Shown here: piece after piece, positions 26,929 to 52,493 of the stretch
Numbering within the stretch: the first letter of the stretch is position 1
Layout of the letters: each line of letters starts with the position of its first letter
From: Escherichia coli
GTDB lineage: Bacteria > Pseudomonadota > Gammaproteobacteria > Enterobacterales > Enterobacteriaceae
DNA length: 64,000 bases
Direction: 5' to 3' (one strand)
NCBI RefSeq assembly: GCF_011045215.1
Contig: NZ_CP049201.1
Notes under the pieces: generated by a model
Told to the model about the DNA's origin: nothing
Databases searched by the model: none
Seen by the model: only the letters and a program-made list of their open reading frames with translations
Made by a program: the position numbers and the translations under genes

Positions 26929-27039
26929 ATGACAATAGAAAAACACGAAAGAAGCACTAAGGATTTGGTGAAAGCAGCGGTATCGGGATGGCTGGGCACT
27001 GCGCTTGAATTTATGGATTTCAAGAGTCATGCGTATTAA
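26929..27039 (+). pseudogene. ydfJ: 5' fragment of MFS transporter gene ydfJ, truncated by prophage insertion
   Basis: encodes MTIEKHERSTKDLVKAAVSGWLGTALEFMDF then runs into a stop after 36 codons where integrase-proximal DNA begins; K-12 ydfJ is known to be split by Qin at this locus. Confidence 0.6.
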
Positions 27040-27058
27040 CTATTTGATAAATATTAAA

Positions 27059-28339
27059 TTAATTTTTCATTGCTTCGTTATGGGGCATGGTTGGGGCAAA
27101 CTCGCTTAACTGTGTATTTAACAAAGCTACCTGTGCATTATTGTTTTCAGACATCCATTTTCCGTATACCTGAAATACCATTTGCGCATCTGCATGGCCC
27201 ATCTGGTTTGCTATAAATGCCGGGTTAGCACCAGCTGTCAGCGACCAGCAGGCATAAGTATGTCTCGACTGATATGATTTTCGATGGCGGAGTCCGGCAC
27301 GTTTTATCGCTGCGTCCCACATCTGCCTTATTGAGTCAACGGTAAAATGGTCACCATAATTTTTTACTCTCGCTGACACTTCAGGTTGAAAAACAAAGGT
27401 GCATTTTTGTTTTTCTGTTCTGCCATACTCTCTGAGGTGAACATCAATGATATGCTCTTTGCTCAGTCTCGTTAATGTCATCTGACTCCGGAGAGCGTCG
27501 ATTGCTGGCTTAATAAGATGAATGACCCGATTGGTTCCCGCCTGTGTTTTTGGTACCGTGAAACGGTCTTTTGCTAAATTTCTCCTGATCATCATTGTTC
27601 CATTTTTCAGATCTATGTCCTCCCATCCAAGTGCACACAGCTCACCAGGGCGAACGCCAGTATAAACAGAAACACACCATAAATTTTTTGCTTGCTGATT
27701 TCTGCACGCATCGATAAGACGGATAAATTCTTCCCGCGAAAGAGGATCCGGAATGGTTCTTGATTCCTTTAATGGCGAGATCCCCTTAAACGGATTATCT
27801 GCCAGGTAACCGTTATCAACACCAAACTGGAACACGGCGTTAAGATTTGTCATGTAATTATTTACAGTTACAGCCGATCTCCCTGGTTGTGTAACAATAT
27901 AGTTACTTTTGGGGGTCTGGTATCCAGTCAGTAGCTCTTTACGAACCTCCAGTAATTTTTCTTTATTAATCGATGAGGCAAGATTTTTTTCACCGATTAT
28001 GCTCAGGATATTTTTGATGACGGCACGGTATGTGTTGAGTGATGTTTTGGCGACTTCAGTTTCTTTCAGTGCCAGAAATTTTTCAGCCAGTTCTTTTATG
28101 GTTAAATCTTGTCGGGCCTCACCAAATTTTTCCAGATTGCGTGAGGAGGGAAACTGTTTTGCATAGTCGAAAACACCAGTTTTTATTGCGTAACAAACAG
28201 AGGAGCGTAGTTCACCTGCAACGCGCCTGTTTTTTGCTGTGTCAGGAACCCCCAGATTTTCCCTGACTCTTACGCCTTTATAAACAAACCAGATACGTAA
28301 TTTCCCTCCATGGTTTTCCACGCCTGTCGGATATTTCAT
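27059..28339 (-). CDS. int: phage integrase, tyrosine recombinase
   Basis: C-terminal catalytic region with R..HxxR..Y arrangement (RHTYACWSL...HADAQMVFQVYGKW); first gene inside the insertion. Confidence 0.9.
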   Translation of the reverse strand: MKYPTGVENHGGKLRIWFVYKGVRVRENLGVPDTAKNRRVAGELRSSVCYAIKTGVFDYAKQFPSSRNLEKFGEARQDLTIKELAEKFLALKETEVAKTSLNTYRAVIKNILSIIGEKNLASSINKEKLLEVRKELLTGYQTPKSNYIVTQPGRSAVTVNNYMTNLNAVFQFGVDNGYLADNPFKGISPLKESRTIPDPLSREEFIRLIDACRNQQAKNLWCVSVYTGVRPGELCALGWEDIDLKNGTMMIRRNLAKDRFTVPKTQAGTNRVIHLIKPAIDALRSQMTLTRLSKEHIIDVHLREYGRTEKQKCTFVFQPEVSARVKNYGDHFTVDSIRQMWDAAIKRAGLRHRKSYQSRHTYACWSLTAGANPAFIANQMGHADAQMVFQVYGKWMSENNNAQVALLNTQLSEFAPTMPHNEAMKN

Positions 28340-28373
28340 TTCAACTTCTCTCATTAGTTAGTGTGGCTTTTAG

Positions 28374-28625
28374 TCAAGTAAGATGACGTCTTGGTCTCGC
28401 TGATGCCTGGCGCTCAATCCAGCGATCAATTTCTTCCAGGTTGTAAAAGCATGGACTGTTATCCCATGGCATACCGTCATGAGCGACATGCTTATATTCC
28501 CTTCCTTCCATAAACGATTTTTCCCGGGCCTTTTTTAACGTACCTTTTTTTATTCCTTTCAGCGCAATTAACTGCTCTTCGGATACCCATTTGCCGGGAG
28601 AGACAATCATGATTACTTCGCTCAT
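28374..28625 (-). CDS. xis: excisionase-like protein
   Basis: 83-aa ORF immediately upstream of int on the same strand; small basic DNA-binding-type protein. Confidence 0.65.
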   Translation of the reverse strand: MSEVIMIVSPGKWVSEEQLIALKGIKKGTLKKAREKSFMEGREYKHVAHDGMPWDNSPCFYNLEEIDRWIERQASARPRRHLT

Positions 28626-28697
28626 CGATTTCTTTATCTCTTACATCAGACGAGCGCCGGTTGCAGAATACCAGTCACAACCGGCGACAGTTGAACA

Positions 28698-31169
28698 TTA
28701 AGAATCAGCCTGACTCGGGATCAGTTTTTGCCAGATAACTGAAACGTATTTTGCCTGGTAACGGGCGTCATCAAGTGCATTATGGCGCTCACCTTCGAAT
28801 GGAATAGCCGTTCTGGGATCGAAGTCTATGGCTTTCCCCAGCTCAACGATTGTGCGTACATCGCGATCGTTGTAGTAACGCCACGGGCAGGGGATCCCCT
28901 GCCGTTCGTATGAACGGCGCAAAATCGTGTTGTCGAAGTTGGCTCCATTTCCCCAGACCTGAACAAAAAATTCACCGGAGTTTTCGTCGATAAATTCCCG
29001 CAATTGTAACAGTGCATCATCTAACGGGATTTCATCGGTCATAATGGCAGATTGCGCTTCGCGTGATTGCTTAAGCCACCATTTAATGGTGTCCCGATCA
29101 ATGACTCCGCCAGCAGTTTCCAGATCGATAGTCTTACTAAATTCCGGTCCCATATCTCCGGTTTGCGGATCGAAAAATATTGCACCTATTGAGATGATCG
29201 GGGCATCAGGATTTTTTCCCATGGTTTCAAGGTCGATCATTAGATGGTCACACGTCCTGCTGGTGGATGTGATTTCGTGATGACCGTTCACCTTAATTGA
29301 GTGATCTGCCGTCTCGCCAGTTTCATTATCGCTATTGTGATGCTGATTGCCGCCAGTGTTCTCCTTGTGTGGATGTTCAGCGCCTTCCATTTCCTCCGGA
29401 TCATCTTCCTGAACTTCAACCTGATACTCTTCATCGAATGTTTCTTGGTATGTTGCGTCGCCCATCACCGCGCCACAATCAGGGCAGTTGCCGCCGCCGG
29501 TCTGACCGCAGGCGGTGCAGACTTTTTCCACTTCCTGTTGCGCCACTGGTTCAGGCTGTTTCGTTTCTGGCTCGTTTTGTAACGCATTTGGGCTGTTTTG
29601 TTCCGCTTTTTGGTAGTTCCGTTCCGATTCATGCTGGTTCTGGTTCACAGAATCGCGGGTCTGGATCCCCTTAACCCATTTCGGATCATTCGGGTCACTA
29701 ATCCCTTCAACAAATTCACCACGTGATGCAGCAAGCAACTTATCGGCGTCAGGCTGGCTGATATTGGCTGCCTGCATAATTTTGTTTACTTCGTCAGCGG
29801 TAACTTTTATCGGCTCTGGTTGTTCTGAATCTTCAGCGGTATCTACATTTTGCGGTAAGCCCGTGTATGTGCCATTTTTTCGGGCAAAATATTCTTCTTT
29901 TGTGATTTCAGTGGCGCCAGCAGCCAGTGCCTTATCCAGACCAGAAAGTTTGTTTGCGCGACCGTATTTTTCTCCGTCCTTATCTGCGAAGAGGAAATAG
30001 AACGGCCCCTCACGCTCTACAGATGGTTCAGCTTCCGGCGCGGTTTCATTTTTTGGGATATCAGATACCTCAGTTTCCACTGCATCAGTTTGTGTTTCTG
30101 ATGACTGGAGAACATCAACAGTGCCCAGGTCTGTTTCTTCATTCTCAAACACGCCCTTTGTCGTCAGGTATTCGCAGATATATTTGTTCAGTGCTACGGG
30201 ATCTTTGTGAATGTCGATCGGACGCTCACGGACAAGGCCAAAAATAGTTTGGCGGTCGTAGCGAAGGGCATCAGGCTGTTTGCGCATTGATGCCGAGATA
30301 CGCTTCCAGTCTTCGCGGTCGTTGTCGATAACTTCTTTTTTTGCCCAGCGATGGATGCTGCCGTCAATGTTTCCGGCATCCACATCACCAGGCCAGAGAG
30401 CGTAGGCCAGTTCGTCATCCAGTGTTTTCCATGTCTGCTTGTATTCGCGATGAATGGCAGCAATGACCGGGCTGATTTTTCCTGTTGAATTTTCAGTGTA
30501 CTGTTGATTGGCTCTGGCGCGGGCGAGATCAACAACAGACGTGTATTTTCCGGTTTCCTTGCGTTCACCTTCGCGACGTTTTTTCCAGATGCGCATCTCT
30601 GTCTGAATTTCGGGCCATTTAGCACCAGGAATACATTTATGCTTAACCCACCCAATGGCGTGCAACTTAAGCTCCGGATACATGGCGTTAACTTCTGGCA
30701 TTTTCATCAACGCTTCAACGATATGTCCGTCGAATGTTGCCATGTCTTCCTGCAACAATTCCTGTGTGCTAATAACCATATCAACGGTGATGTTTTCACA
30801 TGTGTCGAACTTAACCATGACAGCGTTCTGTACTTCAGGGGCCAGCTTGTCAAAAGTGACGTTCATCGGATCGGATTCAGTCTCAACCGGGACAAAAGAA
30901 GCAGACTCCTCATCCCAGCGGTTTTCCTGCATATATTCAGCATCCCATGAATCGAGGGCAGGGCGGGGTATGCCAGGTTTATCCTCGCAGATAATAAATT
31001 TATAAGCGCAGTCCTGAGCAGCCGGATAATGTTCCAGGAACTGCCAGTGAAATTTTGCTCGAGCACGGCGTTCGTCGCCAGCTTCAATGGCTGTGGCTAC
31101 AGCCACCGCGCCTTCTCCCCTTGTTGCCAGTTCGTCAGGAATAGCGGCGCAAATAAAGACTTTACTCAT
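28698..31169 (-). CDS. large phage exonuclease with C-terminal DnaQ/DEDDh-like 3'-5' exonuclease domain
   Basis: 823 aa; C-terminal motifs DLETMG, GNGANFD and HNALDDA consistent with DEDDh; long acidic low-complexity central region. Confidence 0.75.
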   Translation of the reverse strand: MSKVFICAAIPDELATRGEGAVAVATAIEAGDERRARAKFHWQFLEHYPAAQDCAYKFIICEDKPGIPRPALDSWDAEYMQENRWDEESASFVPVETESDPMNVTFDKLAPEVQNAVMVKFDTCENITVDMVISTQELLQEDMATFDGHIVEALMKMPEVNAMYPELKLHAIGWVKHKCIPGAKWPEIQTEMRIWKKRREGERKETGKYTSVVDLARARANQQYTENSTGKISPVIAAIHREYKQTWKTLDDELAYALWPGDVDAGNIDGSIHRWAKKEVIDNDREDWKRISASMRKQPDALRYDRQTIFGLVRERPIDIHKDPVALNKYICEYLTTKGVFENEETDLGTVDVLQSSETQTDAVETEVSDIPKNETAPEAEPSVEREGPFYFLFADKDGEKYGRANKLSGLDKALAAGATEITKEEYFARKNGTYTGLPQNVDTAEDSEQPEPIKVTADEVNKIMQAANISQPDADKLLAASRGEFVEGISDPNDPKWVKGIQTRDSVNQNQHESERNYQKAEQNSPNALQNEPETKQPEPVAQQEVEKVCTACGQTGGGNCPDCGAVMGDATYQETFDEEYQVEVQEDDPEEMEGAEHPHKENTGGNQHHNSDNETGETADHSIKVNGHHEITSTSRTCDHLMIDLETMGKNPDAPIISIGAIFFDPQTGDMGPEFSKTIDLETAGGVIDRDTIKWWLKQSREAQSAIMTDEIPLDDALLQLREFIDENSGEFFVQVWGNGANFDNTILRRSYERQGIPCPWRYYNDRDVRTIVELGKAIDFDPRTAIPFEGERHNALDDARYQAKYVSVIWQKLIPSQADS

Positions 31170-31262
31170 TTTGTTTGAACCTCATGACAGATTTAAGGAT
31201 GAACAAATCCCTGCCATTGCTGGCATATAAGAATGAAACCGGATATTTATTACGGAACTGTT

Positions 31263-31454
31263 TTAAAGACCTGCCGGGATTTCGATATTATCCTGGTGAA
31301 TAACTTTATCGACCGGGTAACAGTTACCGGGAATTTTCTGTTCGGTTGCTGCAGTCATACACTCCTGCATTGTCCTGTGAACACTGACTGCAATATCAAC
31401 TGGCTCTCCGGAAACAAGAAAAACTGTCAGAACAAGCGCAAATGCTGAATTCAT
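31263..31454 (-). CDS. ydfD: YdfD (63-aa Qin-type small lysis-associated protein)
   Basis: 63 aa from internal ATG with AAGGA RBS; N-terminal hydrophobic segment; overlaps dicB stop. Confidence 0.75.
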   Translation of the reverse strand: MNSAFALVLTVFLVSGEPVDIAVSVHRTMQECMTAATEQKIPGNCYPVDKVIHQDNIEIPAGL

Positions 31455-31639
31455 TGTGCACATCCTTTTGGCATCAGACGTAAACGAGCCAGCATTGAAA
31501 CAATGCATATTTTATTTAATAGCTCCCGTTCTTGTTTTCTCTTGTTAATGGCATCTTCAGTAAATACAGGGTTACTGATAGTGACACCAATTTCAAAACA
31601 ACCTTCAGACGTATTAACGTTTGGTAATAACGTTTTCAT
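31451..31639 (-). CDS. dicB: cell division inhibitor DicB
   Basis: 62 aa (MKTLLPNVNTSEGCFEIGV...LMPKGCAQ) with GAGGA RBS; directly downstream of dicF. Confidence 0.85.
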   Translation of the reverse strand: MKTLLPNVNTSEGCFEIGVTISNPVFTEDAINKRKQERELLNKICIVSMLARLRLMPKGCAQ

Positions 31640-31807
31640 TATCGCGTCCTCAACAATGAATTTTGTGATGCAGTGCCTGGTGCCTCCAGGTGACGTTAAC
31701 CAGTTAACAATTAACGCCGGATACAGAGAATCCACCCATAACACTGTTTTTGGTTTTAACTGTTCCGCGTGCGCTTAGCCGCATTCACCGCATCACAAAA
31801 TTCACTT

Positions 31808-31865
31808 TAAAAACGGCGGCAGAGCAGTCACGGAGTAAAACTGATACCGCCAAACGTCACCAGAA
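31808..31865 (-). ncRNA. dicF: DicF small regulatory RNA
   Basis: minus-strand sequence UUUCUGGUGACGUUUGGCGGUAUCAGUUUUACUCCGUGACUGCUCUGCCGCC followed by a U-run matches DicF (53 nt plus terminator tail). Confidence 0.88.
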
Positions 31866-32125
31866 AATTGATAACAGAGGGCGTTGCAGCGGGGTTGTCA
31901 CTTAAGCGTATGGTCAACCTGACAACTCGGTGTCCTCAACGGGGAAGGAATAACCCCGCCATACTTACCGCCGCGCCATTTCGCGGATTGCCACAACCGG
32001 AAGCGCACGGTCGAATTAAATTTACCGACACCGTACAGTTAGACGAATTTCGCCGTGCGCTTTCGTGTTGTGTGCCTGCTTTTAACCACGTCAGGCGAGG
32101 TGGTATCCTTAAAATCACCACAGTT

Positions 32126-32701
32126 TTAAGGATTCATTAAGCAATGTCGCAACCACCAATAAATCCGCTTAAGAACATGAAAATTGATTACTGGTATAAA
32201 GCGCTTACAGTTGTTGGCGCTGCGTTGTTTGTCTTTAATGGAACGTCTTTTTTTGACAGATATCCCGTTGTTCCATTGGGTTTTTTGTCCTCCGGCATCT
32301 TTTTTATTGGTTTGGGGGAGTGGATTAATCACCCTCTCAAAGTGAGATTTATTGGTCCTGGGGTTTGGACTCGTGGATATAATCGTTCTTCGTGCGCACT
32401 CGGCATCATCTTCGACATACTTGGTTGTTTCCTGATTGTTACAGGAGTCGTCAAGTTCTTCTGATGTAAAACCGCAAATGGGGCACGTAACGGGAATTTT
32501 GAAAAGCGTTTCTCCGGGTTCCAGAACAAAATTTTCTGCGGTCTGATTTTGCTTCTCATATTTGTGCTCCGCGTCATTGTGAGAGCACATTCTTATTCTG
32601 AGTGCCTGTTTAAACTCACTGAAGCTGAGAGCTTCTTCGCCTTCGGCAAGGCCTTCGAAGTATTCTTCGTAAGCCTTTTCCATGATTGTGTCGAAATCCA
32701 T
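32126..32701 (-). CDS. hypothetical protein in the ydfB/ydfC position, possible zinc-ribbon
   Basis: 191-aa ORF translationally coupled to ydfA (AGGTGA RBS, 1-nt gap); CPICGF...C motif; C-terminal third is low-complexity and overlaps an antisense 106-aa ORF, so the true extent is uncertain. Confidence 0.5.
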   Translation of the reverse strand: MDFDTIMEKAYEEYFEGLAEGEEALSFSEFKQALRIRMCSHNDAEHKYEKQNQTAENFVLEPGETLFKIPVTCPICGFTSEELDDSCNNQETTKYVEDDAECARRTIISTSPNPRTNKSHFERVINPLPQTNKKDAGGQKTQWNNGISVKKRRSIKDKQRSANNCKRFIPVINFHVLKRIYWWLRHCLMNP

Positions 32702-32702
32702 A

Positions 32703-32858
32703 TCACTCACCTGAGTTTCTTTCCAGCCAGCGACGGGCACCATTTTCGGTTTTAAACGTTTTGCTTTTGGTATACGTCATCGCGGTGAACGTGCCGTCCT
32801 GGTTGGGGAACACGCCACATACCAGAGATTCGCTGTTGCCAAGATCGATAGTATCCAT
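32703..32858 (-). CDS. ydfA: YdfA (51-aa DicA-operon protein)
   Basis: 51 aa from internal ATG with GAGG RBS; first gene downstream of dicA. Confidence 0.75.
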   Translation of the reverse strand: MDTIDLGNSESLVCGVFPNQDGTFTAMTYTKSKTFKTENGARRWLERNSGE

Positions 32859-33026
32859 GCTGACCTCATTTCCCCTTAACGCCTGGGTAGCGGAACTGTT
32901 TGCTGAGAACACCGTGCGGTGTCTTGATGGAAATTAATTTAGAATAATCTAACATGATAGGCAAGTGTTTTTTGTTAGGTTAGTCTAACAAAAAGAGTGA
33001 GCGCAACTAATCACTTGAAAAGAATG

Positions 33027-33434
33027 TTATTTTATTGATTTATTTTTACGCGCTTTAAGCATTTCTTCGAAGAGTTTGTTGAAGTTTTCTACTCTTGCGC
33101 GCATTTCAGACAGCAAGGCTTCCTGCTCGGAAGATGGAAGAGCATCGAATAATTCGATCAATTCTTTGTGGTTGGGAGTTAGCTCTGTTTCCACATGAAG
33201 TTCTTGTGCAGGCACTGGTGCCTTGTCTTCATCACCAAACATTAGCCATGTAGGTGAGCACTTCAGAGCATCCGCTAAAGCAAACAATCGTTTTCCGACT
33301 GGCTGGGTTTCGTCTCTTTCCCATTGTGAAATTGTGACGTGAGCAACTCCAGCGAGGCGCGCAGCTTCTCGTTGTGTTAAGCGTAATTCTTTTCGTCGCG
33401 CCAGAACTCGCTGGCCTAGGGTTCTTGTATCCAT
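33027..33434 (-). CDS. dicA: HTH XRE-family repressor DicA
   Basis: 135 aa with N-terminal HTH (LTQREAARLAGVAHVTISQWERDETQP); divergent from dicC. Confidence 0.88.
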   Translation of the reverse strand: MDTRTLGQRVLARRKELRLTQREAARLAGVAHVTISQWERDETQPVGKRLFALADALKCSPTWLMFGDEDKAPVPAQELHVETELTPNHKELIELFDALPSSEQEALLSEMRARVENFNKLFEEMLKARKNKSIK

Positions 33435-33511
33435 AGTTAGGTAATTCTAATTTTTCTTGACTTAGGTATCCCGCGCACAATAATGTTAGAAAAGTCTAAC
33501 AAGAGGGGGCT

Positions 33512-33742
33512 TTGATGCTTAAAGTTGACGCAATTACTTTTTTTGGCAGCAAAACAAAGCTTGCCAATGCCGCAGGAGTGAGACTGGCAAGTGTTGCTGC
33601 TTGGGGGATACTGGTTCCTGAAGGTCGCGCGATGCGTCTACAGGAGGCATCTGGCGGGGAGCTTCAGTATGATCCCAAAGTTTATGACGAATATCGTAAG
33701 ACGAAGCGGACGGGGCGGTTGAACAATGAAAATCACTCCTGA
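33512..33742 (+). CDS. dicC: Cro-like regulator DicC
   Basis: 76 aa transcribed divergently from dicA across a short operator-containing gap. Confidence 0.85.
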   Translation: MMLKVDAITFFGSKTKLANAAGVRLASVAAWGILVPEGRAMRLQEASGGELQYDPKVYDEYRKTKRTGRLNNENHS

Positions 33743-34247
33743 ACAGGCTCGTGAGGCTCTGGATGCCTGGATATGTCGACCAGGAATGACACAGGAGCAG
33801 GCGACGATATTAATCACTGAAGCATTCTGGGCTTTGAAAGAGCGCCCGAACATCGATGTTCAGCGTGTCACATATGAAGGTGGCGCGGTTGATCAGCGAG
33901 CGCTTAGCGTTAATCGAGTGAAGATATTCGAACGCTGGAAGGCTATCGACACCAGGGATAAGCGTGAAAAGTTCACAGCGCTAGTGCCTGCAATTATGGA
34001 GGCTATCCGGATTAGTGATTTCAGGTTGTATCGTGAGATCAGTGATGGAAAAAGTATTACGTACATGATCGCCGGGTTAAATAAAGAATATGGCGATGTG
34101 GTGGAATCTGGACTGCTTTTTGCAGATCCTGCCGTTGTAGATCGTGAAACTGACGAACTTATAGAAAAAGCAATTGCTTTCAAGCTTGCGTATCGACAGC
34201 AATACCAACAAAAAGCTGGATGGAATTATGAGTCTTCTTTTTGCTGA
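33726..34247 (+). CDS. hypothetical early-region protein (YdaT-like position)
   Basis: 173-aa ORF overlapping the dicC stop; no recognisable catalytic motif. Confidence 0.65.
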   Translation: MKITPEQAREALDAWICRPGMTQEQATILITEAFWALKERPNIDVQRVTYEGGAVDQRALSVNRVKIFERWKAIDTRDKREKFTALVPAIMEAIRISDFRLYREISDGKSITYMIAGLNKEYGDVVESGLLFADPAVVDRETDELIEKAIAFKLAYRQQYQQKAGWNYESSFC

Positions 34248-35831: not shown

Positions 35832-36470
35832 ATGAAGATGAAAAACATGTCTGAAGTGTTGACCCAAGAAAAGCTTATTTTTGTTGCCCAGAGACTAAAG
35901 GCCCTCGCGCAGTCAGGCCTGACCTATTCAAAAGACGTCTTTGACAAGGAACGCTATGAAGCCTTGCGTGAAATTGCCGCTGGACTGCTGAGTTCGCAGT
36001 TTGATATTAGCCGCAATGATTTGTTTCATGTATCGGAAACGGGTTACGCGACGCCCAAAACAGATGTGCGTGCGTTTATCCTGCGTAATAATCGTATTCT
36101 GATGGTGAAAGAGGCTGCAGATGGATTATGGAGTCTTCCTGGCGGATGGGCAGATGTTGGAGATACACCTTCTGAAGCTGTGCGTCGAGAGGTCGAAGAA
36201 GAAACCGGATTAAAAGTCAGAGTGACTAAACTATTGGGAGTTTGGGATCGTAATCTTCACGGCCATCCGCCTTTACCCTGGCATGTTTACAAGCTGATTT
36301 TTCTCTGTGAAGAAGTAGGTGGCAGCCTGTCAATCAGCCATGAGTCACTCGATGCTGATTTTTTTGATGTCAACGACCTGCCTGAATTGTCGCTTTCAAG
36401 AATTGTGCCTGAGCAGATTGCTGTCAGCCTGAGAGTAGCGAAAGGTGATGAAAAAACATGGTTTGATTAA
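35832..36470 (+). CDS. Nudix hydrolase with N-terminal extension domain
   Basis: 212 aa; Nudix-box core GGWADVGDTPSEAVRREVEEETGL. Confidence 0.85.
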   Translation: MKMKNMSEVLTQEKLIFVAQRLKALAQSGLTYSKDVFDKERYEALREIAAGLLSSQFDISRNDLFHVSETGYATPKTDVRAFILRNNRILMVKEAADGLWSLPGGWADVGDTPSEAVRREVEEETGLKVRVTKLLGVWDRNLHGHPPLPWHVYKLIFLCEEVGGSLSISHESLDADFFDVNDLPELSLSRIVPEQIAVSLRVAKGDEKTWFD

Positions 36471-36493
36471 CTTTCTTCTGCAACCATTAAGGA

Positions 36494-37138
36494 ATGGCAA
36501 TGATATTCAACGCTAAGGGTTTTTTATTCGATATGGACGGTACGCTGGTTGATTCAACAGCCGTAGTGGAAAACGTCTGGAGAGATTTTTGTGCAGAATA
36601 CGGTCTTGATTCTCAGGCTGTGATTGCTTACGCACACGGGCGGCAAACGATTGATACACTAACGCATTTTATTGGTGCAGGTGAGAAAACCAATAAAATC
36701 GCGGCCTCACTCGAAGAGGTTGAAATCAACACGACAGAAGGCGTTACTGAAGTAAAAGGGGCCGCTGCACTCTTATCAAAACTGCCACCGGATAGCTGGG
36801 CACTTGTCACTTCTGCAGGCAGAATGCTTGCCGAAAACAGGATGAAAGCGGCTAATCTCCCCTTACCCAGAGTAATGGTGTGTGCAGAAGATGTAATGAC
36901 GGGAAAACCAAGTCCCGAGGGTTACATCAAAGCAGCTTTGGCTTTGGGCCTTGAGCCTGGTGAATGCGTGGTATTTGAGGATGCATCTGCGGGTATAAAA
37001 GCAGGGCTGGCAAGTGGAGCTTCGGTAATAGCTGTTCAGCCTGACGCTCTGGGATCATCTGAAGCCCATGCCGTCAGCGAACTGTCTGACATTATGGTCA
37101 AGATTTCCGGAGAACGTTTCAATATCATCTGTGGTTAA
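36494..37138 (+). CDS. HAD-superfamily phosphatase (beta-phosphoglucomutase-like subfamily)
   Basis: 214 aa; motif I FDMDGTLVDS, motif III lysine region and downstream acidic motif (EDASAG); 24 bp after the Nudix gene. Confidence 0.85.
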   Translation: MAMIFNAKGFLFDMDGTLVDSTAVVENVWRDFCAEYGLDSQAVIAYAHGRQTIDTLTHFIGAGEKTNKIAASLEEVEINTTEGVTEVKGAAALLSKLPPDSWALVTSAGRMLAENRMKAANLPLPRVMVCAEDVMTGKPSPEGYIKAALALGLEPGECVVFEDASAGIKAGLASGASVIAVQPDALGSSEAHAVSELSDIMVKISGERFNIICG

Positions 37139-37476: not shown

Positions 37477-37687
37477 TTTCATATTGGCGAGGTAACGGTA
37501 GTTAAGTAGAATGGCTGCGGGTGCTTGAGGCTATCTGCCTCGGGCATGAACACCAACGGCAGATAGAGAAAAGCCCCAGTTAACATTACGCGTCCTGCAA
37601 GACGCTTAACATTAATCTGAGGCCAATTTCATGCTAGACACATGTAGGTTAGCCTCTTACGTGCCGAAAGGCAAGGAGAAGCAGGCT

Positions 37688-37843
37688 ATGAAGCAGCAAA
37701 AGGCGATGTTAATCGCCCTGATCGTCATCTGTTTAACCGTCATAGTGACGGCACTGGTAACGAGGAAAGACCTCTGCGAGGTACGAATCCGAACCGGCCA
37801 GACGGAGGTCGCTGTCTTCACAGCTTACGAACCTGAGGAGTAA
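37688..37843 (+). CDS. hok: Hok/Gef-family type I toxin
   Basis: 51 aa MKQQKAMLIALIVICLTVIVTALVTRKDLCEVRIRTGQTEVAVFTAYEPEE, typical Hok; in-frame upstream ATG at 37631 could act as a mok-like leader. Confidence 0.88.
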   Translation: MKQQKAMLIALIVICLTVIVTALVTRKDLCEVRIRTGQTEVAVFTAYEPEE

Positions 37844-38059: not shown

Positions 38060-38311
38060 ATGATGAACATCGAAGAACTGCGTAAAATTTTTTGTGAAGA
38101 TGGCCTCTATGCTGTGTGCGTTGAAAATGGAAACATTGTTAGTCATTACCGCATTCTGTGTTTGCGAAAGAATGGGGCTGCGTTAATTAATTTTATGGAT
38201 GCTCGGGTCACGGACGGATTTATCTTGCGCGAAGGTGAGTTTGTCACTTCATTACAGGCACTGAAAGAGATCGGAATAAAAGCAGGCTTTTCAGCTTTTG
38301 CAGAAGAATAA
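38060..38311 (+). CDS. small phage protein in the Rem position (83 aa)
   Basis: 83-aa ORF between hok and the DUF968 gene, same order as hokD-rem-ydfU in Qin. Confidence 0.6.
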   Translation: MMNIEELRKIFCEDGLYAVCVENGNIVSHYRILCLRKNGAALINFMDARVTDGFILREGEFVTSLQALKEIGIKAGFSAFAEE

Positions 38312-39724: not shown

Positions 39725-40069
39725 ATGCGTGATATGTATGAAGTTTTAGACCGCTGGGGAGCGTGGGCTGCAGCAGATAACAGTGGTGTGGACTGGCAGC
39801 CGATAGCAGCAGGCTTTAAGGGGCTTTTACCTCATGGTAAAAAAATACGCCTTCAGTGTGATGATGATGAAGGCATCATGATAGACGGCTGTGTTGCCCG
39901 CCTGTGTAAGTATAAACCAGACGAATATGAGCTGATCATTGCTCACTTCGTTATAGGTATTTCACTGCGTTCTATTGCGAAGAGACGCAGATGCTCAGAT
40001 GGAACAATCCGGAAGCAATTGCAGACTGCGTTAGGTTTCATTAATGGGGTTATGTACATGCTCAAGTAA
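39725..40069 (+). CDS. Q: late-gene antiterminator Q (933W/82-type)
   Basis: 114 aa from ATG with GGAG RBS (MRDMYEVLDRWGAWAA...), N-terminus resembles small Q antiterminators. Confidence 0.8.
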   Translation: MRDMYEVLDRWGAWAAADNSGVDWQPIAAGFKGLLPHGKKIRLQCDDDEGIMIDGCVARLCKYKPDEYELIIAHFVIGISLRSIAKRRRCSDGTIRKQLQTALGFINGVMYMLK

Positions 40070-41288
40070 TATTTGGCATTAATTTAAATAAAATACCGAT
40101 GATGCCTATGAATGTAGGCATCCATGCTAGTGATAATAAACTGTCAAGCACCTTATGACAAAAATCCTCATTGTCATTTAATTTTTTAATAGCCTCTTCT
40201 AAGCTCTCTTTAAGATCGCTGGTGTCATCCTTTATTCTATATCTTAATTGTCCAAAAAGTATTTCTTTAGAGTGTGAAATACGAGCAAGTTGTTTTTTTT
40301 GTGACACAATCATTGCAGATGTTATTATTGCTGTGATAATCAATCCAATTAAAGCAATAATCCAATCAGCTTTTGTTGTTAATTTGAAAATAGCAATTGA
40401 ACCAGCTAGTGAAATAGGTATTGCAAGAGCTTTGTTAGAAATTTCTGAAATTATTTTTGACAGTTTTTCTGAGTAATCGAGTTCAGCATCAACAACTTCT
40501 TTCCTTGCTTTATGAAAAGAAAATGCCGATATATAAGCAGCTAAGTTGTTCGTATAAAGTTCGCATATGAAATCCCACTTGTTAATTAACTCGACAAAGG
40601 AATTTCCATTTTTATTAACATACTCAATAACTGTGTTTCTGAAAGTGTTAATCTTTTCAATGTGATGGGCATCAGTAGTAGCTTCACTACTTACTAATGT
40701 TTTAACTAACTGAGTATTTACTGTTTTATCATTAAAAATTTCTTCTGTAATATTTGTTTCAATTACAGCAGAAGAAGATTTAGACTCTGAGTTTAAAATA
40801 AAGACTAAACGATAAAATGTACCTTTGCTATCTTTTTTTATATCATGGAAATGAGCAAGCATGGAAAGAGCATTGATTAGCTCACAAATGTCCTCAATTT
40901 TTTGGATATAAGAAGGTTTTGGTGTTTCTAATGAATAGAAATCATCCTCTATAATATAGAAATACTCTGGCATTATGCCTTTCTTGAGCGTGTTTATTTT
41001 TACAAACTCGTTTTTATTTTTATAAAAACGATTCGCACTTCCTTGTGAAATTTTAAACGAGTATGTAAGAAAATTTCCCTTTTCAGGAAAGTCTTCATAA
41101 TCATAAATTAAATGACCATCCACCTCTATTTCGTCAGCTGTACCAGCTTGAAAAGTAGGGTTCAAAATTCTTTTGAACAATGATTTTACGTCTGCATTAT
41201 AAGCTATACGCGCAGAAAACTTAGCCCCGTCAAAATGAGGATAGCTTGATAATCTATACAGATTAACTATTATACTAAAATCATTCAT
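40062..41288 (-). CDS. candidate defence effector: protein with soluble N-terminal domain and C-terminal transmembrane helices
   Basis: 408 aa, AT-rich; hydrophobic segments ALAIPISLAGSIAIFKL, WIIALIGLIITAIITSAMIVS and WMPTFIGIIGILFKL; start overlaps upstream gene stop (ATGA). Confidence 0.75.
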   Translation of the reverse strand: MNDFSIIVNLYRLSSYPHFDGAKFSARIAYNADVKSLFKRILNPTFQAGTADEIEVDGHLIYDYEDFPEKGNFLTYSFKISQGSANRFYKNKNEFVKINTLKKGIMPEYFYIIEDDFYSLETPKPSYIQKIEDICELINALSMLAHFHDIKKDSKGTFYRLVFILNSESKSSSAVIETNITEEIFNDKTVNTQLVKTLVSSEATTDAHHIEKINTFRNTVIEYVNKNGNSFVELINKWDFICELYTNNLAAYISAFSFHKARKEVVDAELDYSEKLSKIISEISNKALAIPISLAGSIAIFKLTTKADWIIALIGLIITAIITSAMIVSQKKQLARISHSKEILFGQLRYRIKDDTSDLKESLEEAIKKLNDNEDFCHKVLDSLLSLAWMPTFIGIIGILFKLMPNIT

Positions 41289-42451
41289 TCTTTATCTTCT
41301 TCATTACTCGGGTTATCAGTTTCTTTCAACGCTCTTCTTATCTTAGTTAATGCTTCAACAGGCAAATTATTAAATGTTAGGCTTTGGTTTTCGTCATCAT
41401 AATATATTTTAGCATCAGTTGTGACACCGAGTAAATCCTTGTCGAAGTGAAAGCTCAATGATGGGGTTTTATATATCACATTGCGGATTTTATCTAAGGA
41501 GTTTTTATTGATTACGAACTCTGATGGGATTCTGACTTCCTCACTATTGAGGTGTTTCATTAATTTATCAACAAGTTCTGTTTTTTCTTCCTCTTTTAAA
41601 TAGGACATATGGCCTGAAGCAAGCGATTCGATATCAGAAAGCCTTGCAGAGTGCTCGTTGTCAAATTGCTTTTCTAAGTATTTGATAACATCATTTCTAA
41701 ATGACTCTGCTTGATTTTTTAAAAGAGGTTCTTTCTTAAAGAAACGCCTTATTTCATCTGGTAACTTACGGGTTGCGCCTGCTGAAGCAATCCCCTTGTC
41801 ACATCCTAATGCTGCTATAAAATATGCTGCCGCTGACTGTCCCGTAGTTTTGCTTATAAAGCTTAGATAACTTAAGTCTGTTTTTTTTAAATCATCTGCT
41901 TTTTGGTATTCTTCATAATATCTGAAATTTATTTTTGCTGCTTGGTTAATATTACCAAGTTCTAAGTGAATCATTTCCTCTGGCTCTAAATTTTCACTAA
42001 TAGTTACGCCATTAGTTTTTTTGATCATTGTAACCAATAGATAACGGAAACCAGATAAAATATAATCAGTAAAAACAACATATCCTCCAGAAGCCCAAAT
42101 CTGCTCTTGAGCAGATTTATACATTTGTTTCATAACTTCCTTCGATAATTCAATGAAATCATTTGAAACAGATTGTTGAACTAAAGAGTATTTATGAAAT
42201 AGTTCTGGTATAGGGCCTTGTTTTGTTTTATTTTTAATAAAAACACCATAATGCGCTGAGTTCCCTTTTGAACCATACAAATCAATAACACCGTCTACTA
42301 ATTTTTTTACTATATCATTTGTTTTATCTAGTTCTGTATCACGAAGATTGTATGGTTTGGAGTGATCGAAGTCTTTATTAGATTCTTTTAAGAGCTCATG
42401 AACGATTACGTGGCGTATGCTTGCTTTGCTCATTTTTTTGGTCAATTCCAT
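41285..42451 (-). CDS. YejK/NdpA-like (NA37 family) nucleoid-associated-type protein
   Basis: 388 aa, AT-rich; blocks resembling E. coli YejK (IRHVIVHELLK; SGGYVVFTDY..FRYLLVTMIK...ISENL; YLSFISKTTG..AAYFIAALG); start may be the internal ATG at 42433. Confidence 0.75.
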   Translation of the reverse strand: MELTKKMSKASIRHVIVHELLKESNKDFDHSKPYNLRDTELDKTNDIVKKLVDGVIDLYGSKGNSAHYGVFIKNKTKQGPIPELFHKYSLVQQSVSNDFIELSKEVMKQMYKSAQEQIWASGGYVVFTDYILSGFRYLLVTMIKKTNGVTISENLEPEEMIHLELGNINQAAKINFRYYEEYQKADDLKKTDLSYLSFISKTTGQSAAAYFIAALGCDKGIASAGATRKLPDEIRRFFKKEPLLKNQAESFRNDVIKYLEKQFDNEHSARLSDIESLASGHMSYLKEEEKTELVDKLMKHLNSEEVRIPSEFVINKNSLDKIRNVIYKTPSLSFHFDKDLLGVTTDAKIYYDDENQSLTFNNLPVEALTKIRRALKETDNPSNEEDKE

Positions 42452-43050: not shown

Positions 43051-44103
43051 ATGAAAAATACTGTAAAAATAAACAGTGTTGATTTAATCAACGCTGATTG
43101 CCTGCATTTTATTCAGTCCTTGCCTGATGATTCCATTGATCTGATTGTTACCGATCCGCCGTACTTCAAAGTGAAGCCCAACGGCTGGGACAATCAGTGG
43201 AAAGGGGACGAAGATTACCTGAAGTGGCTGGACTACTGTCTGGCCCAGTTCTGGCGGGTACTGAAACCAGCCGGAAGCCTTTACCTGTTCTGTGGACATC
43301 GCCTGGCATCTGATATTGAGATCATGATGCGTGAACGTTTCAACGTGCTTAACCATATCATCTGGGCGAAGCCGTCCGGACGTTGGAATGGGTGTAATAA
43401 AGAAAGTCTGCGCGCATATTTTCCTGCCACAGAGCGCGTTCTGTTTGCTGAACATTACCAGGGGCCATATCGCGGCAAAAGTGACGGCTATGCGGCAAAA
43501 GAAAGGGAACTCAAACAGCACATAATGGCACCGCTGATATCGTATTTCAGGGATGCTCGTGCCGAACTGGGTATAACGGCAAAACAAATTGCCGAAGCCA
43601 CAGGTAAGAAAAATATGGTTTCCCACTGGTTTGGTGCCAGTCAGTGGCAGTTGCCGAATGAGGCTGACTATCGGAAGTTACAGGCACTGTTTTCCCGTAT
43701 AGCGGCAGAGAAGTTTCAGGAACAACAACTGGAACAACCACACCACCAGCTGGTGGCATCTTATGATTCACTGAATCGCAAATATTCTGAATTGCTGGAT
43801 GAGTTTAAATCTCTCCGGCGCTATTTCTCCGTATCAGTCTCCGTGCCTTATACCGATGTCTGGATGCATAAACCCGTTCAGTTCTACCCGGGTAAACATC
43901 CGTGTGAGAAACCTGCGGATATGCTCCGGCAAATAATCAATGCCAGTAGTCGACCTGGTGATCTGGTTGCTGATTTTTTTATGGGATCCGGTTCCACAAT
44001 AAAAGCAGCAATGGCGCTGGGGCGTCGGGCCTTAGGTGTTGAGCTTGAGTCAGAGCGGTTTAACCAGACAGTGAAAGAGATATACGAGCTGGTGGGGAAA
44101 TAA
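43051..44103 (+). CDS. DNA N6-adenine/N4-cytosine methyltransferase
   Basis: 350 aa with DPPY catalytic motif near N-terminus and AdoMet motif FFMGSGST near C-terminus (beta-class arrangement). Confidence 0.88.
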   Translation: MKNTVKINSVDLINADCLHFIQSLPDDSIDLIVTDPPYFKVKPNGWDNQWKGDEDYLKWLDYCLAQFWRVLKPAGSLYLFCGHRLASDIEIMMRERFNVLNHIIWAKPSGRWNGCNKESLRAYFPATERVLFAEHYQGPYRGKSDGYAAKERELKQHIMAPLISYFRDARAELGITAKQIAEATGKKNMVSHWFGASQWQLPNEADYRKLQALFSRIAAEKFQEQQLEQPHHQLVASYDSLNRKYSELLDEFKSLRRYFSVSVSVPYTDVWMHKPVQFYPGKHPCEKPADMLRQIINASSRPGDLVADFFMGSGSTIKAAMALGRRALGVELESERFNQTVKEIYELVGK

Positions 44104-46184: not shown

Positions 46185-46679
46185 ATGGATCGAGAGTTAA
46201 AAAATCTGACGCTGAATATCAGTCAACTGGCGGCACTGTCAGGTGTACATCGCCAGACTGCTGCGGCAAGGCTGCAAAATCTACCCGTTGCAGGGGGGCA
46301 TGAAAGCAACCTCAAGCTTTATCGGGTGGTTGATATTGTGTCGGCATTTCTGGCATTGCCACCGCCGGTTGCAGAAGGCGAAATGGACGCGCATGAGCGC
46401 AAAGCCTGGTATCAGTCTGAACGTGAGCGTCTTAAGTTCGAACAGGAAACGGCACAACTCATTCCGGCCAGTGATGTCAGACGGGAGTTTGCCATCTGGG
46501 CAAAAGCGGTCGTGCAGGTGCTGGAGACATTACCGGATATTCTGGAACGTGACTGCGGTCTGCAGCCTGCCGCTGTGAGCCGTGTTCAGTCCATTATTGA
46601 TGATCTGCGCGATCAGATAGCCCTGCGGGTGACTGAAGCAGGTGCGGATGATGAGGAGGAATTACAGCAGGAGGAGTAA
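46185..46679 (+). CDS. terminase small subunit
   Basis: 164 aa with N-terminal HTH-like segment (LNISQLAALSGVHRQTAAARL) and acidic C-terminus; directly precedes large terminase. Confidence 0.8.
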   Translation: MDRELKNLTLNISQLAALSGVHRQTAAARLQNLPVAGGHESNLKLYRVVDIVSAFLALPPPVAEGEMDAHERKAWYQSERERLKFEQETAQLIPASDVRREFAIWAKAVVQVLETLPDILERDCGLQPAAVSRVQSIIDDLRDQIALRVTEAGADDEEELQQEE

Positions 46680-48781: not shown

Positions 48782-48990
48782 ACCAGAATGATATCGAAGC
48801 CATGATTCAGCGTTATACGGAAGCTGAAATGGCGGTGCTGGACGGAAAATCCGTCACCTTTAATGGTCAGCAGATGACCATGGAAAACTTATCTGAGATC
48901 CGGCAGGGACGGCAGGAGTGGGAGCGCCGCCTTGCGGCTCTGATTACACGACGACGGGGGCATCCCGGGTATCGGCTGGCGAGGTTCTGA
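48772..48990 (+). CDS. W: head-tail joining protein, gpW-like
   Basis: 72 aa with gpW-type pattern and C-terminal RRRGHPG. Confidence 0.75.
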   Translation: MVMNQNDIEAMIQRYTEAEMAVLDGKSVTFNGQQMTMENLSEIRQGRQEWERRLAALITRRRGHPGYRLARF

Positions 48991-50498
48991 TGGCAATTCT
49001 TGATGATGTGATTGGCGTTTTTTCACCAGGATGGAAAGCGGCAAGGCTGCGTTCCCGTGCGGTGATCCAGGCTTATGAGGCCGTAAAAACGACGCGGACA
49101 CACAAAGCCCGACGGGAGAACCGAACTGCCGACCAGTTAAGCCAGTACGGGGCCGTGTCGTTACGTGAGCAGGCCCGTTACCTTGATAACAACCACGATC
49201 TGGTTATTGGTGTATTTGACAAGCTGGAAGAACGGGTGGTGGGGAAAAACGGGATTATTGTCGAGCCACATCCGGTATTACGCAATGGGGCCATTGCCCG
49301 TGACCTGGCTGCGGAGATTCGCACCCGATGGAGTGAATGGTCTGTCAGCCCGGAAGTCACCGGGCAGTTTACCCGTCCGATGCTGGAACGTCTGATGCTT
49401 CGTACCTGGCTGCGCGATGGTGAGGTGTTTGCCCAGATGGTTTCCGGGCGCATAAACAGCCTGACGCCTTCTGCCGGTGTTCATTTCTGGCTGGAGGCGC
49501 TCGAGCCGGACTTTATTCCCATGACCAGTGATGAGAGCAACAGGCTGAATCAGGGCGTGTTTGTTGATGACTGGGGGCGTCCCGAAAAATATCTGGTGTA
49601 TAAAAGCCGTCCCGTATCCGGACGGCAGATGGAAACCAAAGAAGTGGATGCAGAGCGAATGCTGCATCTTAAATTTGTTCGCCGTCTGCACCAGATGCGC
49701 GGGACGTCTTTATTGTCCGGTGTGCTGATCCGCCTCAGTGCCCTGAAAGAGTATGAAGATTCTGAGCTGACTGCAGCAAGGATCGCCGCCGCTCTGGGGA
49801 TGTACATCCGGAAAGGCGACGGGCAGAGCTATGAAGCGGATGGTAATGGCAGCAAGGATAAGGAACGCGAGCTTACCATTCAGCCAGGCATTATTTACGA
49901 TGATCTGAAACCCGGCGAAGAAATCGGAATGGTGAAGTCGGATCGCCCAAATCCTAACCTTGAAACTTTTCGTAATGGTCAGTTGCGTGCCGTGGCGGCG
50001 GGCAGTCGTCTGAGTTTTTCCAGTACAGCGCGCAACTATAACGGCACTTACAGCGCCCAGCGTCAGGAGCTGGTTGAATCCACTGATGGCTACCTGATCC
50101 TGCAGGACTGGTTTATTGGTGCCGTCACCCGTCCGATGTATCGTGCCTGGCTGAAACAGGCTGTGGCATCCGGTGTTATCAGGCTACCCCGCGATCTTGA
50201 CCTTTCTTCACTGTATACCGCGGTGTATTCCGGACCGGTGATGCCGTGGATTGACCCTGTTAAGGAGGCTGAGGCCTGGAAAATCCAGATTCGTGGTGGA
50301 GCGGCGACAGAATCAGACTGGGTACGTGCTGGTGGTCGTAATCCGGATGATGTCAAACGTCGGCGCAAGGCCGAAATTGATGAAAACCGCAAGCTGGATC
50401 TGGTATTTGATACCGATCCGGCCAGTGATAAAGGAGGCAGCAGTGCCGCAACGAAACGACAGGAGCCGCAGCACACCGACGACCAGTCCGAAGAATAA
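48990..50498 (+). CDS. portal protein (lambda gpB family)
   Basis: 502 aa from ATG overlapping W stop (TGATG); position after terminase and W. Confidence 0.85.
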   Translation: MAILDDVIGVFSPGWKAARLRSRAVIQAYEAVKTTRTHKARRENRTADQLSQYGAVSLREQARYLDNNHDLVIGVFDKLEERVVGKNGIIVEPHPVLRNGAIARDLAAEIRTRWSEWSVSPEVTGQFTRPMLERLMLRTWLRDGEVFAQMVSGRINSLTPSAGVHFWLEALEPDFIPMTSDESNRLNQGVFVDDWGRPEKYLVYKSRPVSGRQMETKEVDAERMLHLKFVRRLHQMRGTSLLSGVLIRLSALKEYEDSELTAARIAAALGMYIRKGDGQSYEADGNGSKDKERELTIQPGIIYDDLKPGEEIGMVKSDRPNPNLETFRNGQLRAVAAGSRLSFSSTARNYNGTYSAQRQELVESTDGYLILQDWFIGAVTRPMYRAWLKQAVASGVIRLPRDLDLSSLYTAVYSGPVMPWIDPVKEAEAWKIQIRGGAATESDWVRAGGRNPDDVKRRRKAEIDENRKLDLVFDTDPASDKGGSSAATKRQEPQHTDDQSEE

Positions 50499-50511
50499 TT
50501 CCTGGTTCAGG

Positions 50512-52470: not shown

Positions 52471-52493
52471 ACGTCGCAGACAACAACTCTGAT

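Follow-up and report, generated by a model that had tools for sequence, protein, structure and literature searches.

The region 31263-33742 is best read, at a probability of roughly 0.8, as the immunity region of a lambdoid prophage of the mEp460/Ayreon/HannyBb group, situated by rspB, together with the portion of its leftward early (PL-type) operon that lies nearest the promoter. Alignment shows that it is no mere copy of Qin from K-12, as it has another allele of the immunity core and a replacement for the ydfB 3' end and ydfC. A dicBF module within an inducible phage is already known from isolated phages and from print, and the context of the dic module is ordinary because these isolated phages already show the same context. 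The exception is a small unannotated membrane-protein gene that lies, in reversed orientation, within the operon. In the window (the whole stretch of 64000 nucleotides that was analysed), all the named dic elements were found at the coordinates given in Table 1, with scores far above chance. The leftward unit is composed, in order, of ydfA, ydfB' (the read-through ORF), dicF, dicB, ydfD and then exonuclease, xis and int, and the DicA-family repressor gene and the Cro-like dicC form a divergent pair.

Table 1. Features of the dic region and of the surrounding prophage (positions in the window)
Feature	Coordinates	Strand	Basis
int, 431 aa	27059-28354	-	Pfam
xis, 83 aa	28374-28625	-	ORF
exonuclease, 823 aa	28698-31169	-	Pfam
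ydfD, 63 aa, DUF1482, 'lysis protein YdfD'	31263-31454	-	PF07358, E 2.1e-26
dicB, cell-division inhibitor, 62 aa	31451-31639	-	PF05358, E 1.9e-40
dicF sRNA with stem-loop and T-run terminator	31813-31865	-	Rfam RF00039
Leader upstream of dicF, untranslated	31866-32030	-	K-12 nucleotide identity
570-bp cassette	32031-32600	.	Without K-12 homology, between blastn blocks
ydfB' read-through ORF, 191 aa (205 aa as listed)	32126-32701	-	phrog_35040 match
106-aa membrane-protein gene, antisense to the operon	32144-32464	+	Homologs, dN/dS, AF2 model
ydfA, 51 aa, DUF1391, first gene of the operon	32703-32858	-	PF07151, E 8.8e-28
dicBp-equivalent promoter with two operator palindromes	32936-32988	-	Sequence reading and K-12 alignment
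DicA-family repressor, 135 aa	33027-33434	-	NF007257
dicA-dicC intergenic control region, palindromes 33437-33450 and 33486-33499	33437-33499	.	Sequence
dicC, Cro-like	33515-33742 (ATG, 75 aa) or 33512-33742 (TTG, 76 aa)	+	P22_Cro, NF007282
rem, 83 aa, homolog of the K-12 DicA antirepressor	38060-38311	+	Translation compared
Virion module, terS to gpI	46185-61034	+	tblastn of Ayreon proteins
J, cut by the window end	from 61095 to 64000	+	First 968 aa open

The distal part of the module is nearly that of K-12, with about 99% nucleotide identity over dicF, dicB and ydfD. The Rfam check proposed in the first-pass annotation came out clearly, since the DicF covariance model (RF00039, gathering score 48) is matched at 31814-31865 on the minus strand over its full length (model positions 1-52 of 52) with 72.5 bits and an E-value of 4.8e-14. 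The K-12 dicF gene (53 nt) maps to 31813-31865 with a sole mismatch, the last base before the T-run. DicB is 100% identical to its K-12 counterpart (PF05358, 136.8 bits against a cut-off of 27; NF049927, 132.8 bits against a cut-off of 100), and YdfD and YdfA differ from theirs by one and two substitutions, respectively. The identity extends 5' of dicF, the interval 30403-32030, which covers the leader, being 98.8% identical to K-12 at the nucleotide level. In K-12, DicF is cut from a polycistronic ydfA-to-dicB transcript, its upstream leader being processed to release the sRNA, and represses ftsZ through Hfq (PMC5069750). Leader and terminator are both conserved here; by analogy with K-12, DicF would be released and would repress ftsZ in this prophage as well.

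The first-pass annotation had described an intact dicA/dicC switch and an intact ydfA-[ydfB/C]-dicF-dicB-ydfD operon, with all elements at their Qin sizes. Switch and operon are indeed intact at the level of ORFs and operators, and neither dicB nor dicF is disrupted in the alignment with Qin. The sizes were recovered for DicF, DicB, YdfD, YdfA and DicA, with a reservation for DicC, which has 76 residues if started at the TTG and 75 from the ATG at 33515, the codon homologous to the K-12 start and the one called by PGAP in near-identical genomes. The alignment shows near-identity for dicF, dicB, ydfD and ydfA, and divergence in the immunity core. The ydfB/C element has to be withdrawn: ydfC is absent, and ydfB retains the first 101 nt homologous to K-12 before its frame enters a foreign cassette, so that the complete ydfB and ydfC that stand between ydfA and dicF in a K-12-type operon were not found. 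The region thus resembles Qin in chromosomal site, in the order and sizes of ydfA, dicF, dicB, ydfD, dicA and dicC, in operator layout and in the presence of rem and hokD/sok downstream; it differs in DicA (57% identical), in DicC (84%), in an inner operator base and in a cassette with an antisense membrane-protein gene. Moreover, Qin has lost or broken its int, exonuclease, cII-like, replication, lysis and virion genes, whereas these are intact here within the window.

The prophage occupies the Qin position: rspA and rspB directly adjoin int on its left, an arrangement shared with L001, L004 and K-12, and the attL junction lies near 27022. From int to ydfA (27006-32942), it is 99.3% identical to phage HannyBb (PP925841) at the nucleotide level, with the same gene lengths and the same int-xis-exo-ydfD-dicB-dicF-cassette-ydfA arrangement; HannyBb differs by another repressor (a 459-nt gene) and by its Q and lysis regions. 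Over the late region, identity to mEp460, Ayreon and phi458 amounts to 97-98%, and each Ayreon protein from terS to gpI gave one full-length tblastn match (96-100% amino acid identity). Consistent with the complete prophage announced by the first-pass annotation, int, xis, exonuclease, the O-like initiator, Q, the lysis genes and terS-gpI are all full length within the window. The terms 'complete prophage' and 'full virion module' go further than the window, which ends within J at 64000 (968 aa open, of an expected length of about 1,150 aa) and includes neither the side tail fibres nor attR. Judged from its genes, the prophage looks undamaged within these limits.

A serious competing explanation, which we consider a real if minority possibility, is that the element is cryptic despite this intact look, owing either to a subtle point defect or to damage beyond the window, in the J C-terminus, the side tail fibres or attR; the dic module would then have been domesticated by the host, as in K-12 Qin, and would not be part of an active phage. 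The genome closest in the dic region (B4103-1, 99.8%) has a heavily decayed prophage at this place, in which frameshifts occur and genes for lysis and tail are truncated, and the cut through J points the same way. So does the search for the whole early region in a collection of 5426 genomes, which gave 0 places at a coverage of at least 80% (best 78%); as there is no twin genome in this collection, completeness cannot be deduced from a relative. Against this, 37 kb of prophage sequence contain no truncated gene in comparison with viable phages (Ayreon for terS-gpI; HannyBb for int, xis and exonuclease), the cII-like YdaT gene that is split in K-12 is whole here, and the viable HannyBb likewise lacks a separate helicase loader.

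An inducible-phage context for the cell-division-inhibition module had been put forward as what this locus offers. Such a context is already available: besides HannyBb, the isolated phages mEp460_ev081 (LR597641) and Tritos (OV696610) carry dicB and dicF as here, and mEp460_ev081 is discussed in print as a functional phage with dicB, dicF, dicAC and rem (PMC10448788). With dicBF in viable temperate phages already public, and hundreds of E. coli genomes carrying near-identical sequences, little is gained from the main finding in itself; useful points come from the immunity allele and the cassette.

The immunity core, which extends approximately from 32943 to 33610, comprises dicA, the two pairs of operators and that half of dicC which encodes the DNA-binding part. 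With respect to both K-12 and HannyBb it represents a block exchange, with conserved flanks and sharp junctions near 32943 and 33610. The repressor is recognised by the DicA profile NF007257 with 224.7 bits (cut-off 101; K-12 DicA scores 234.3), and its sole Pfam domain type is HTH_3, without an S24 peptidase domain. DicC is matched by NF007282 (164 bits, cut-off 130) and by P22_Cro (PF14549, 45.9 bits against 30.2, E 5e-12), and its differences from K-12 are confined to the N-terminal half. Palindromes of the form TTAGN6CTAA occur four times in the window against 0.42 expected, and all four flank dicA; the spacing is 6, and the same pattern with a 7-nt spacer had no match. Two of them (cores 32939-32952 and 32975-32988) overlap the leftward promoter upstream of ydfA, read by eye as a -35 TTGCCT (32964-32959), a 17-nt spacer and a -10 TAAATT (32941-32936). 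This dicBp-equivalent aligns with the K-12 region but was missed by a consensus scan, and the counts of the promoter and terminator scan over the region equalled the shuffled expectation. The other two bracket the rightward (dicC) promoter at 33457-33484 (TTGACT, 16 nt, AATAAT). Three operators per side have been described in K-12 (PMC10448788), compared with two strict-core palindromes per side here.

The fifth palindrome base also differs, the form being TTAGR..YCTAA here and TTAGY..RCTAA in K-12. This difference, together with the other allele, suggests an immunity specificity other than that of K-12, and this DicA would be expected, by analogy, to bind the four putative operators. It is very unlikely that DicA and DicC are a mismatched recombinant in which control of the operon is lost and dicBp stands under a foreign repressor or none: the region is mosaic with sharp junctions, but both junctions lie outside the four operators, which all carry the allele-specific inner bases, and dicB and dicF are toxic when unrepressed (PMC5069750), yet a query of this immunity allele with the cassette is covered to at least 80% in 292 complete genomes. 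As the operators are alike and the junctions outside them, we infer that the repressor, the DNA-binding half of Cro and the operators moved as one block. Among complete phage records none carries this DicA allele (best 94%, in a partial record; next 66%). DicA and DicC exist as exchangeable immunity alleles to which the operator subtypes are matched, and the results obtained with K-12 DicA and Rem may not transfer to every gene annotated as 'dicA'.

By analogy with K-12, for which control by DicA, DicC and Rem without the SOS response has been modelled (PMC10448788) and the processing and targets of the operon described (PMC5069750), DicA would repress both promoters in the lysogen and would not be cleavable by RecA. 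Derepression could come from the Rem antirepressor or from stochastic or environmental flips of the DicA/DicC switch; urea and heat are the inducers of dicBp in K-12. The derepressed operon would then deliver DicF, as an Hfq-dependent sRNA against ftsZ and other mRNAs, and DicB, which would block division via MinC and inhibit inner-membrane phage receptors; with YdfD, they would form the counterpart of lambda kil or Rac kilR in host takeover. Rem is described as an antirepressor of DicA (PMC10448788), and the protein encoded here shows 7 differences in 83 aa by eye, i.e. it is ~92% identical to K-12 Rem; on this analogy it may act on the present DicA, despite the 57% identity of the latter to K-12 DicA. 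The mitomycin C induction proposed by the first-pass annotation is probably the wrong test, because this DicA lacks the S24 domain and DicA is unresponsive to mitomycin C in K-12. An antirepressor under SOS control was considered and rejected: the two CTGT-N8-ACAG LexA boxes of the window (22113 and 43061) are not near rem, and their number is that of chance (18 of 100 shuffles).

The analogy between the dic and lambda immunity regions has been drawn before (PMC10448788). In both, a divergent repressor/Cro switch is combined with operators at each of the early promoters, and the leftward operon encodes a division inhibitor (kil in lambda). However, the repressor here is devoid of the RecA-cleavable C-terminal domain, and the gap between dicA and ydfA contains no gene where lambda has N.

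The cassette stands where K-12 has the ydfB 3' end, ydfC and 176 nt downstream of ydfC. It is present in phage HannyBb and in 794 of 5426 complete E. coli genomes; in these ~15%, the dicBF operon carries it in place of ydfB/ydfC and the place is annotated as empty or as a pseudogene (PGAP labels ydfB a pseudogene in the near-identical genomes). What has been overlooked is a conserved and widely distributed membrane protein of 106 aa, with the motifs IDYWYKA and GLGEWINHPLQ, whose homologs (34-58% identity, 98-111 aa) were found in Yersinia, Herminiimonas, Reinekea and metagenomes. The AF2 model (pLDDT 88) consists of three helices and a beta hairpin. Pfam, PHROG, NCBIfam and PADLOC gave no match to the protein, and a comparison of the model with BFVD and PDB gave none at E <=0.001, with TM-scores <=0.4. 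The same gene stands beside the repressor, in the same opposite orientation, in other lambdoid prophages, and outside phages it lies in non-prophage surroundings, in Reinekea among small genes of cassette type.

The closest parallel in position is Rac, where the order is racR-ydaG-ydaF(DUF1391)-[sieB, opposite strand]-kilS-kilR. Both regions combine a repressor with an HTH and without S24, a DUF1391 gene, an opposite-strand membrane gene, an sRNA and an FtsZ/division inhibitor, and Rac-like prophages carry the cassette itself beside KilR. Unlike their positions, the sequences are unrelated: dicF/dicB do not resemble kilS/kilR, and homology of the 106-aa protein to SieB was rejected (hhalign probability 0.3%, without a Pfam match), position and orientation alone being in common. 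Going by this position and orientation, the 106-aa gene would most likely be a moron, expressed in the lysogen, that takes the place which sieB has in Rac.

Opposite this gene runs the ydfB' ORF, made of 101 nt of ydfB (33 complete codons), a segment with an IPxxCPxCGF motif and a tail lying antisense to the 106-aa gene, codon against codon. That this minus-strand ORF is the real gene and the 106-aa plus-strand ORF a chance shadow is highly improbable: the ORF is annotated in phage genomes (phrog_35040; HannyBb CDS0038), it is open across all the prophage copies and its motif is conserved beyond the overlap, but full-length homologs of the plus-strand protein exist in unrelated bacteria, dN/dS over the overlap in close pairs is 0.12-0.19 for the plus frame against 1.3-1.6 for the minus frame, and the three-helix model of the plus-strand protein is confident. 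We therefore keep the 106-aa ORF as the gene.

The minus frame itself is stop-free in 5 of 5 prophage copies, while each of the 6 homologs from outside prophages has 3-17 stops in it, the probability of 0 stops being 0.02-0.04 per lineage; over the 45 nt beyond the overlap, it is mainly the minus-frame third positions that differ (49/42/77). As the antisense frames of the prophage copies are free of stops, ribosomes coming from upstream (ydfB and the IPxxCPxCGF segment) could cross them. Possibly, although we hold it to be rather unlikely, the cassette is a selected antisense arrangement and not a simple insertion, with a horizontally mobile membrane-protein gene placed on the other strand within the early-left operon. 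Translation of the minus frame would then either shield this N-less operon from Rho-dependent polarity upstream of dicF/dicB or yield a second protein by overprinting; under both options, expression of the two strands would alternate between the lysogenic and the induced state. If the stop-free frame is a true adaptation, it would be a compact case of a lysogen-expressed gene fitted into an unbroken lytic operon. Finally, a hairpin was noted upstream of the 106-aa gene; indels in the alignment shift its arms out of register.

The six elements of the dic locus that the first-pass annotation had placed at 31263-33742 (DicF, DicB, YdfD, YdfA, DicA and DicC) were all recovered by Rfam, ORF listing and profile searches, and the Rfam score of DicF compares with a gathering score of 48 bits. 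The protein sizes it gave were also found, except that a 76-aa DicC requires a TTG start one codon upstream of the ATG homologous to the K-12 start, from which the protein has 75 aa. DicA and DicC score 224.7 bits (cut-off 101; K-12 DicA, 234.3) and 164 bits (cut-off 130; K-12 DicC, 159.5) against their respective NCBIfam subfamilies.

Features of the dic locus and of the surrounding prophage
Feature	Position	Strand	Size	Evidence or remark
int			431 aa	
xis			83 aa	
exonuclease			823 aa	
ydfD	31263-31454		63 aa	DUF1482 (ORF listing, profile search)
dicB	31451-31639		62 aa	PF05358, E 1.9e-40 (ORF listing, profile search)
DicF RNA	31814-31865	-		Rfam scan of whole window, full-length, 72.5 bits, E 4.8e-14
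minus ORF	32126-32701	-	191 codons	continues ydfB; phrog_35040
106-aa membrane protein gene	32144-32464	+	106 aa	homologs, dN/dS, AlphaFold model
ydfA	32703-32858		51 aa	DUF1391 (ORF listing, profile search)
operator palindromes, left of dicA	32939-32952, 32975-32988			TTAG-N6-CTAA
dicA	33027-33434		135 aa	HTH_3; DicA subfamily (NCBIfam)
operator palindromes, right of dicA	33437-33450, 33486-33499			TTAG-N6-CTAA
dicC	33515-33742			P22_Cro type; DicC subfamily (NCBIfam)
cII-like/YdaT gene	33726-34247	+	173 aa	single ORF
NUDIX and HAD hydrolases	35832-37138	+		between replication genes and hok/sok
hok/sok-type toxin-antitoxin	37519-37843			Rfam sok 115 bits (37519-37693); mok/hokD-like ORF 37631-37843
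rem	38060-38311	+	83 aa	7 differences from K-12; K-12 homolog is DicA antirepressor
low-GC gene pair	40062-42451	-		GC3 0.23-0.27; between Q and methyltransferase
N6/N4 DNA methyltransferase	43051-44103	+	350 aa	PADLOC MTase_II, E 4e-151; directly upstream of lysis cassette

Aligned with the region of Qin, the cryptic prophage of K-12 MG1655, the locus is a mosaic of near-identical and diverged blocks. Identity is about 99% over 30403-32030 (5' part of the exonuclease gene, ydfD, dicB, dicF and leader) and over ydfA with the first 101 nt of ydfB, and the 3' half of dicC and the start of the YdaT-like gene are near-identical as well. DicB is 100% identical to its K-12 counterpart, YdfD has one residue changed and YdfA two. 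This alignment, proposed earlier as a check, shows dicB and dicF undisrupted, but the dicA allele differs and the ydfB 3' end and ydfC are replaced. The diverged block (~32943-33610) takes in the promoter and operators upstream of ydfA and the entire dicA gene, together with the dicA-dicC intergenic region and the 5' half of dicC; identity to the K-12 proteins is 57% for DicA and 84% for DicC. Comparison with the isolated temperate phage HannyBb, whose repressor differs again, gives identical block boundaries, the sequence pattern of a classical exchangeable immunity unit. All four TTAG-N6-CTAA palindromes in the 64 kb (0.42 expected) flank dicA, the left pair overlapping a promoter predicted from the sequence (TTGCCT, 17 nt, TAAATT) and the right pair bracketing another (TTGACT-16-AATAAT). 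Since the K-12 Qin operators have a matching layout with Y..R instead of R..Y adjoining the half-sites, we infer that repressor, DNA-binding half of Cro and operators changed together.

By analogy with K-12 (PMC10448788, PMC5069750), DicA would repress both early promoters and DicC would reinforce the switched-on state; derepression would then yield DicF, DicB and YdfD, in the role of lambda kil or kilR of the K-12 prophage Rac. DicA lacks a RecA-cleavage domain, the domain search giving no S24 match. In K-12 the dicBp promoter is insensitive to mitomycin C and recA, and is switched on by the antirepressor Rem, spontaneous switching, urea or heat (PMC10448788). By the same analogy, mitomycin C would be a questionable induction test for this prophage. 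The rem gene is kept although the DicA allele is so distant from that of K-12, and Rem might act on it as in K-12. HannyBb, whose repressor is different again, carries at the rem position a gene of 252 nt, as long as rem, in a block aligned at ~96%.

The 452 bp of K-12 that hold the ydfB 3' end, ydfC and 176 nt are swapped here for a 570-bp cassette (32031-32600), in which two long ORFs on opposite strands overlap in one codon register. Homologs of the 106-aa protein (98-111 aa, 34-58% identity) occur in Yersinia, Herminiimonas, Reinekea and many metagenomes; W17-Y-K-A20 is invariant among them, as is the core of GLGEWINHP, and the IDYWYKA motif is invariant in a smaller alignment of 20 sequences. 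For close pairs of prophage copies, this frame has a dN/dS of 0.12-0.19, against 1.3-1.6 for the opposite one. AlphaFold models the protein confidently (pLDDT 88), as three long helices plus a beta hairpin, and searches of family, defence and structure databases returned no family, defence-system or fold match. The plus-strand ORF is, on this evidence, a real gene. In Yersinia and other lambdoid prophages it adjoins the repressor, opposite to the early-left genes, and in Rac-like elements it is next to kilR, again beside the repressor and opposite to the early-left strand. In K-12 Rac the corresponding slot, on the opposite strand between the DUF1391 gene on one side and the sRNA and division inhibitor on the other, is filled by sieB. 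The product is probably a membrane protein expressed in the lysogen, possibly for exclusion, and transcribed against the silent operon. Coverage of the cassette reaches at least 80% in 794 of the 5426 complete E. coli genomes; PGAP's calls there are limited to a ydfB pseudogene or a hypothetical protein, and the antisense cassette is the sole part beyond current annotation. A perfect 10-bp inverted repeat (32105-32133; ATCCTTAAAA, 9-nt loop, TTTTAAGGAT) lies just ahead of the 106-aa gene, with that gene's Shine-Dalgarno sequence and the minus-ORF stop codon inside it. In other lineages the arms near the loop read AAAA/TTTT, AAGC/GCTT or AAGG/CCTT; these changes appear to be compensating, and indels shift the arms out of register in the alignment.

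Within the overlap the minus ORF is unconstrained in sequence, yet free of stops in each of the five prophage copies examined. Near-saturated synonymous divergence separates at least three of these lineages, and the probability of zero stops, given the prophage's own codon usage, is 0.02-0.04 per lineage. The corresponding frame of non-prophage homologs contains 3-17 stops (6/6). Just outside the overlap, differences in the stretch that encodes the conserved minus-frame segment IPxxCPxCGF concentrate on third positions of that frame (49/42/77). The frame is not indispensable, because the prophage copy L021 has a stop directly after CPVC. A stop-free opposite frame could let ribosomes traverse the cassette once the operon fires. 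That this may protect from polarity is a reasonable reading, because these operons have nothing in the position of lambda N and because the equivalent kilR region of Rac is known to be silenced by Rho/NusG (PMC5793797).

The prophage had also been described as complete, with int, replication, lysis and a full virion module. The int, replication and lysis genes were found, the Ayreon structural proteins from terS to gpI each give one full-length alignment at 96-100% identity, and the stretch from int to ydfA shares 99.3% identity with HannyBb. The replication genes (O-like and Ren-like, without a separate loader) are arranged as in HannyBb, so that the missing loader is not a defect. Completeness is nevertheless plausible rather than proven, because J is open over its first 968 aa and then runs past the end of the window, none of the 5426 genomes has the whole early region, and the best match to the dic region alone, strain B4103-1, has a decayed prophage. 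The observation is confirmed, and its interpretation as an inducible-phage context for the dic module is partly supported. This context is already known: the dicBF locus was described across many prophage contexts in 2016 (PMC5069750), attention was drawn in 2023 to a functional phage that has dicB, dicF, dicAC and rem (PMC10448788), and the module is present in the records of phages HannyBb, mEp460_ev081 and Tritos.

Directly left of int lie rspA and rspB, the arrangement also seen where Qin is inserted in K-12 and at this site in other strains. The YdaT gene, split into ydfX and ydfW in K-12 Qin, is whole here, a further sequence-level sign of less decay. Further early genes are the O-like initiator, a DUF977/Ren-like gene and DUF968 (ydfU). 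Between ydfW/ydfX and hokD, whose counterpart is the hok/sok locus, Qin has flxA, ydfV and relBE instead of the two hydrolases; the NUDIX hydrolase weakly matches the PADLOC candidate PDC-S07 (E 6.6e-10). The late-control and lysis genes comprise a 119-aa Q, the low-GC pair, the methyltransferase, holin, lysozyme and Rz/Rz1. No partner endonuclease of the methyltransferase was seen, and a LexA-box-like CTGT-N8-ACAG inside its start (43061) is at chance level. The low-GC pair encodes a 388-aa NA37-family nucleoid-associated protein and a 408-aa protein without Pfam or PADLOC match; it resembles a moron, and its position is taken by different genes in other phages.
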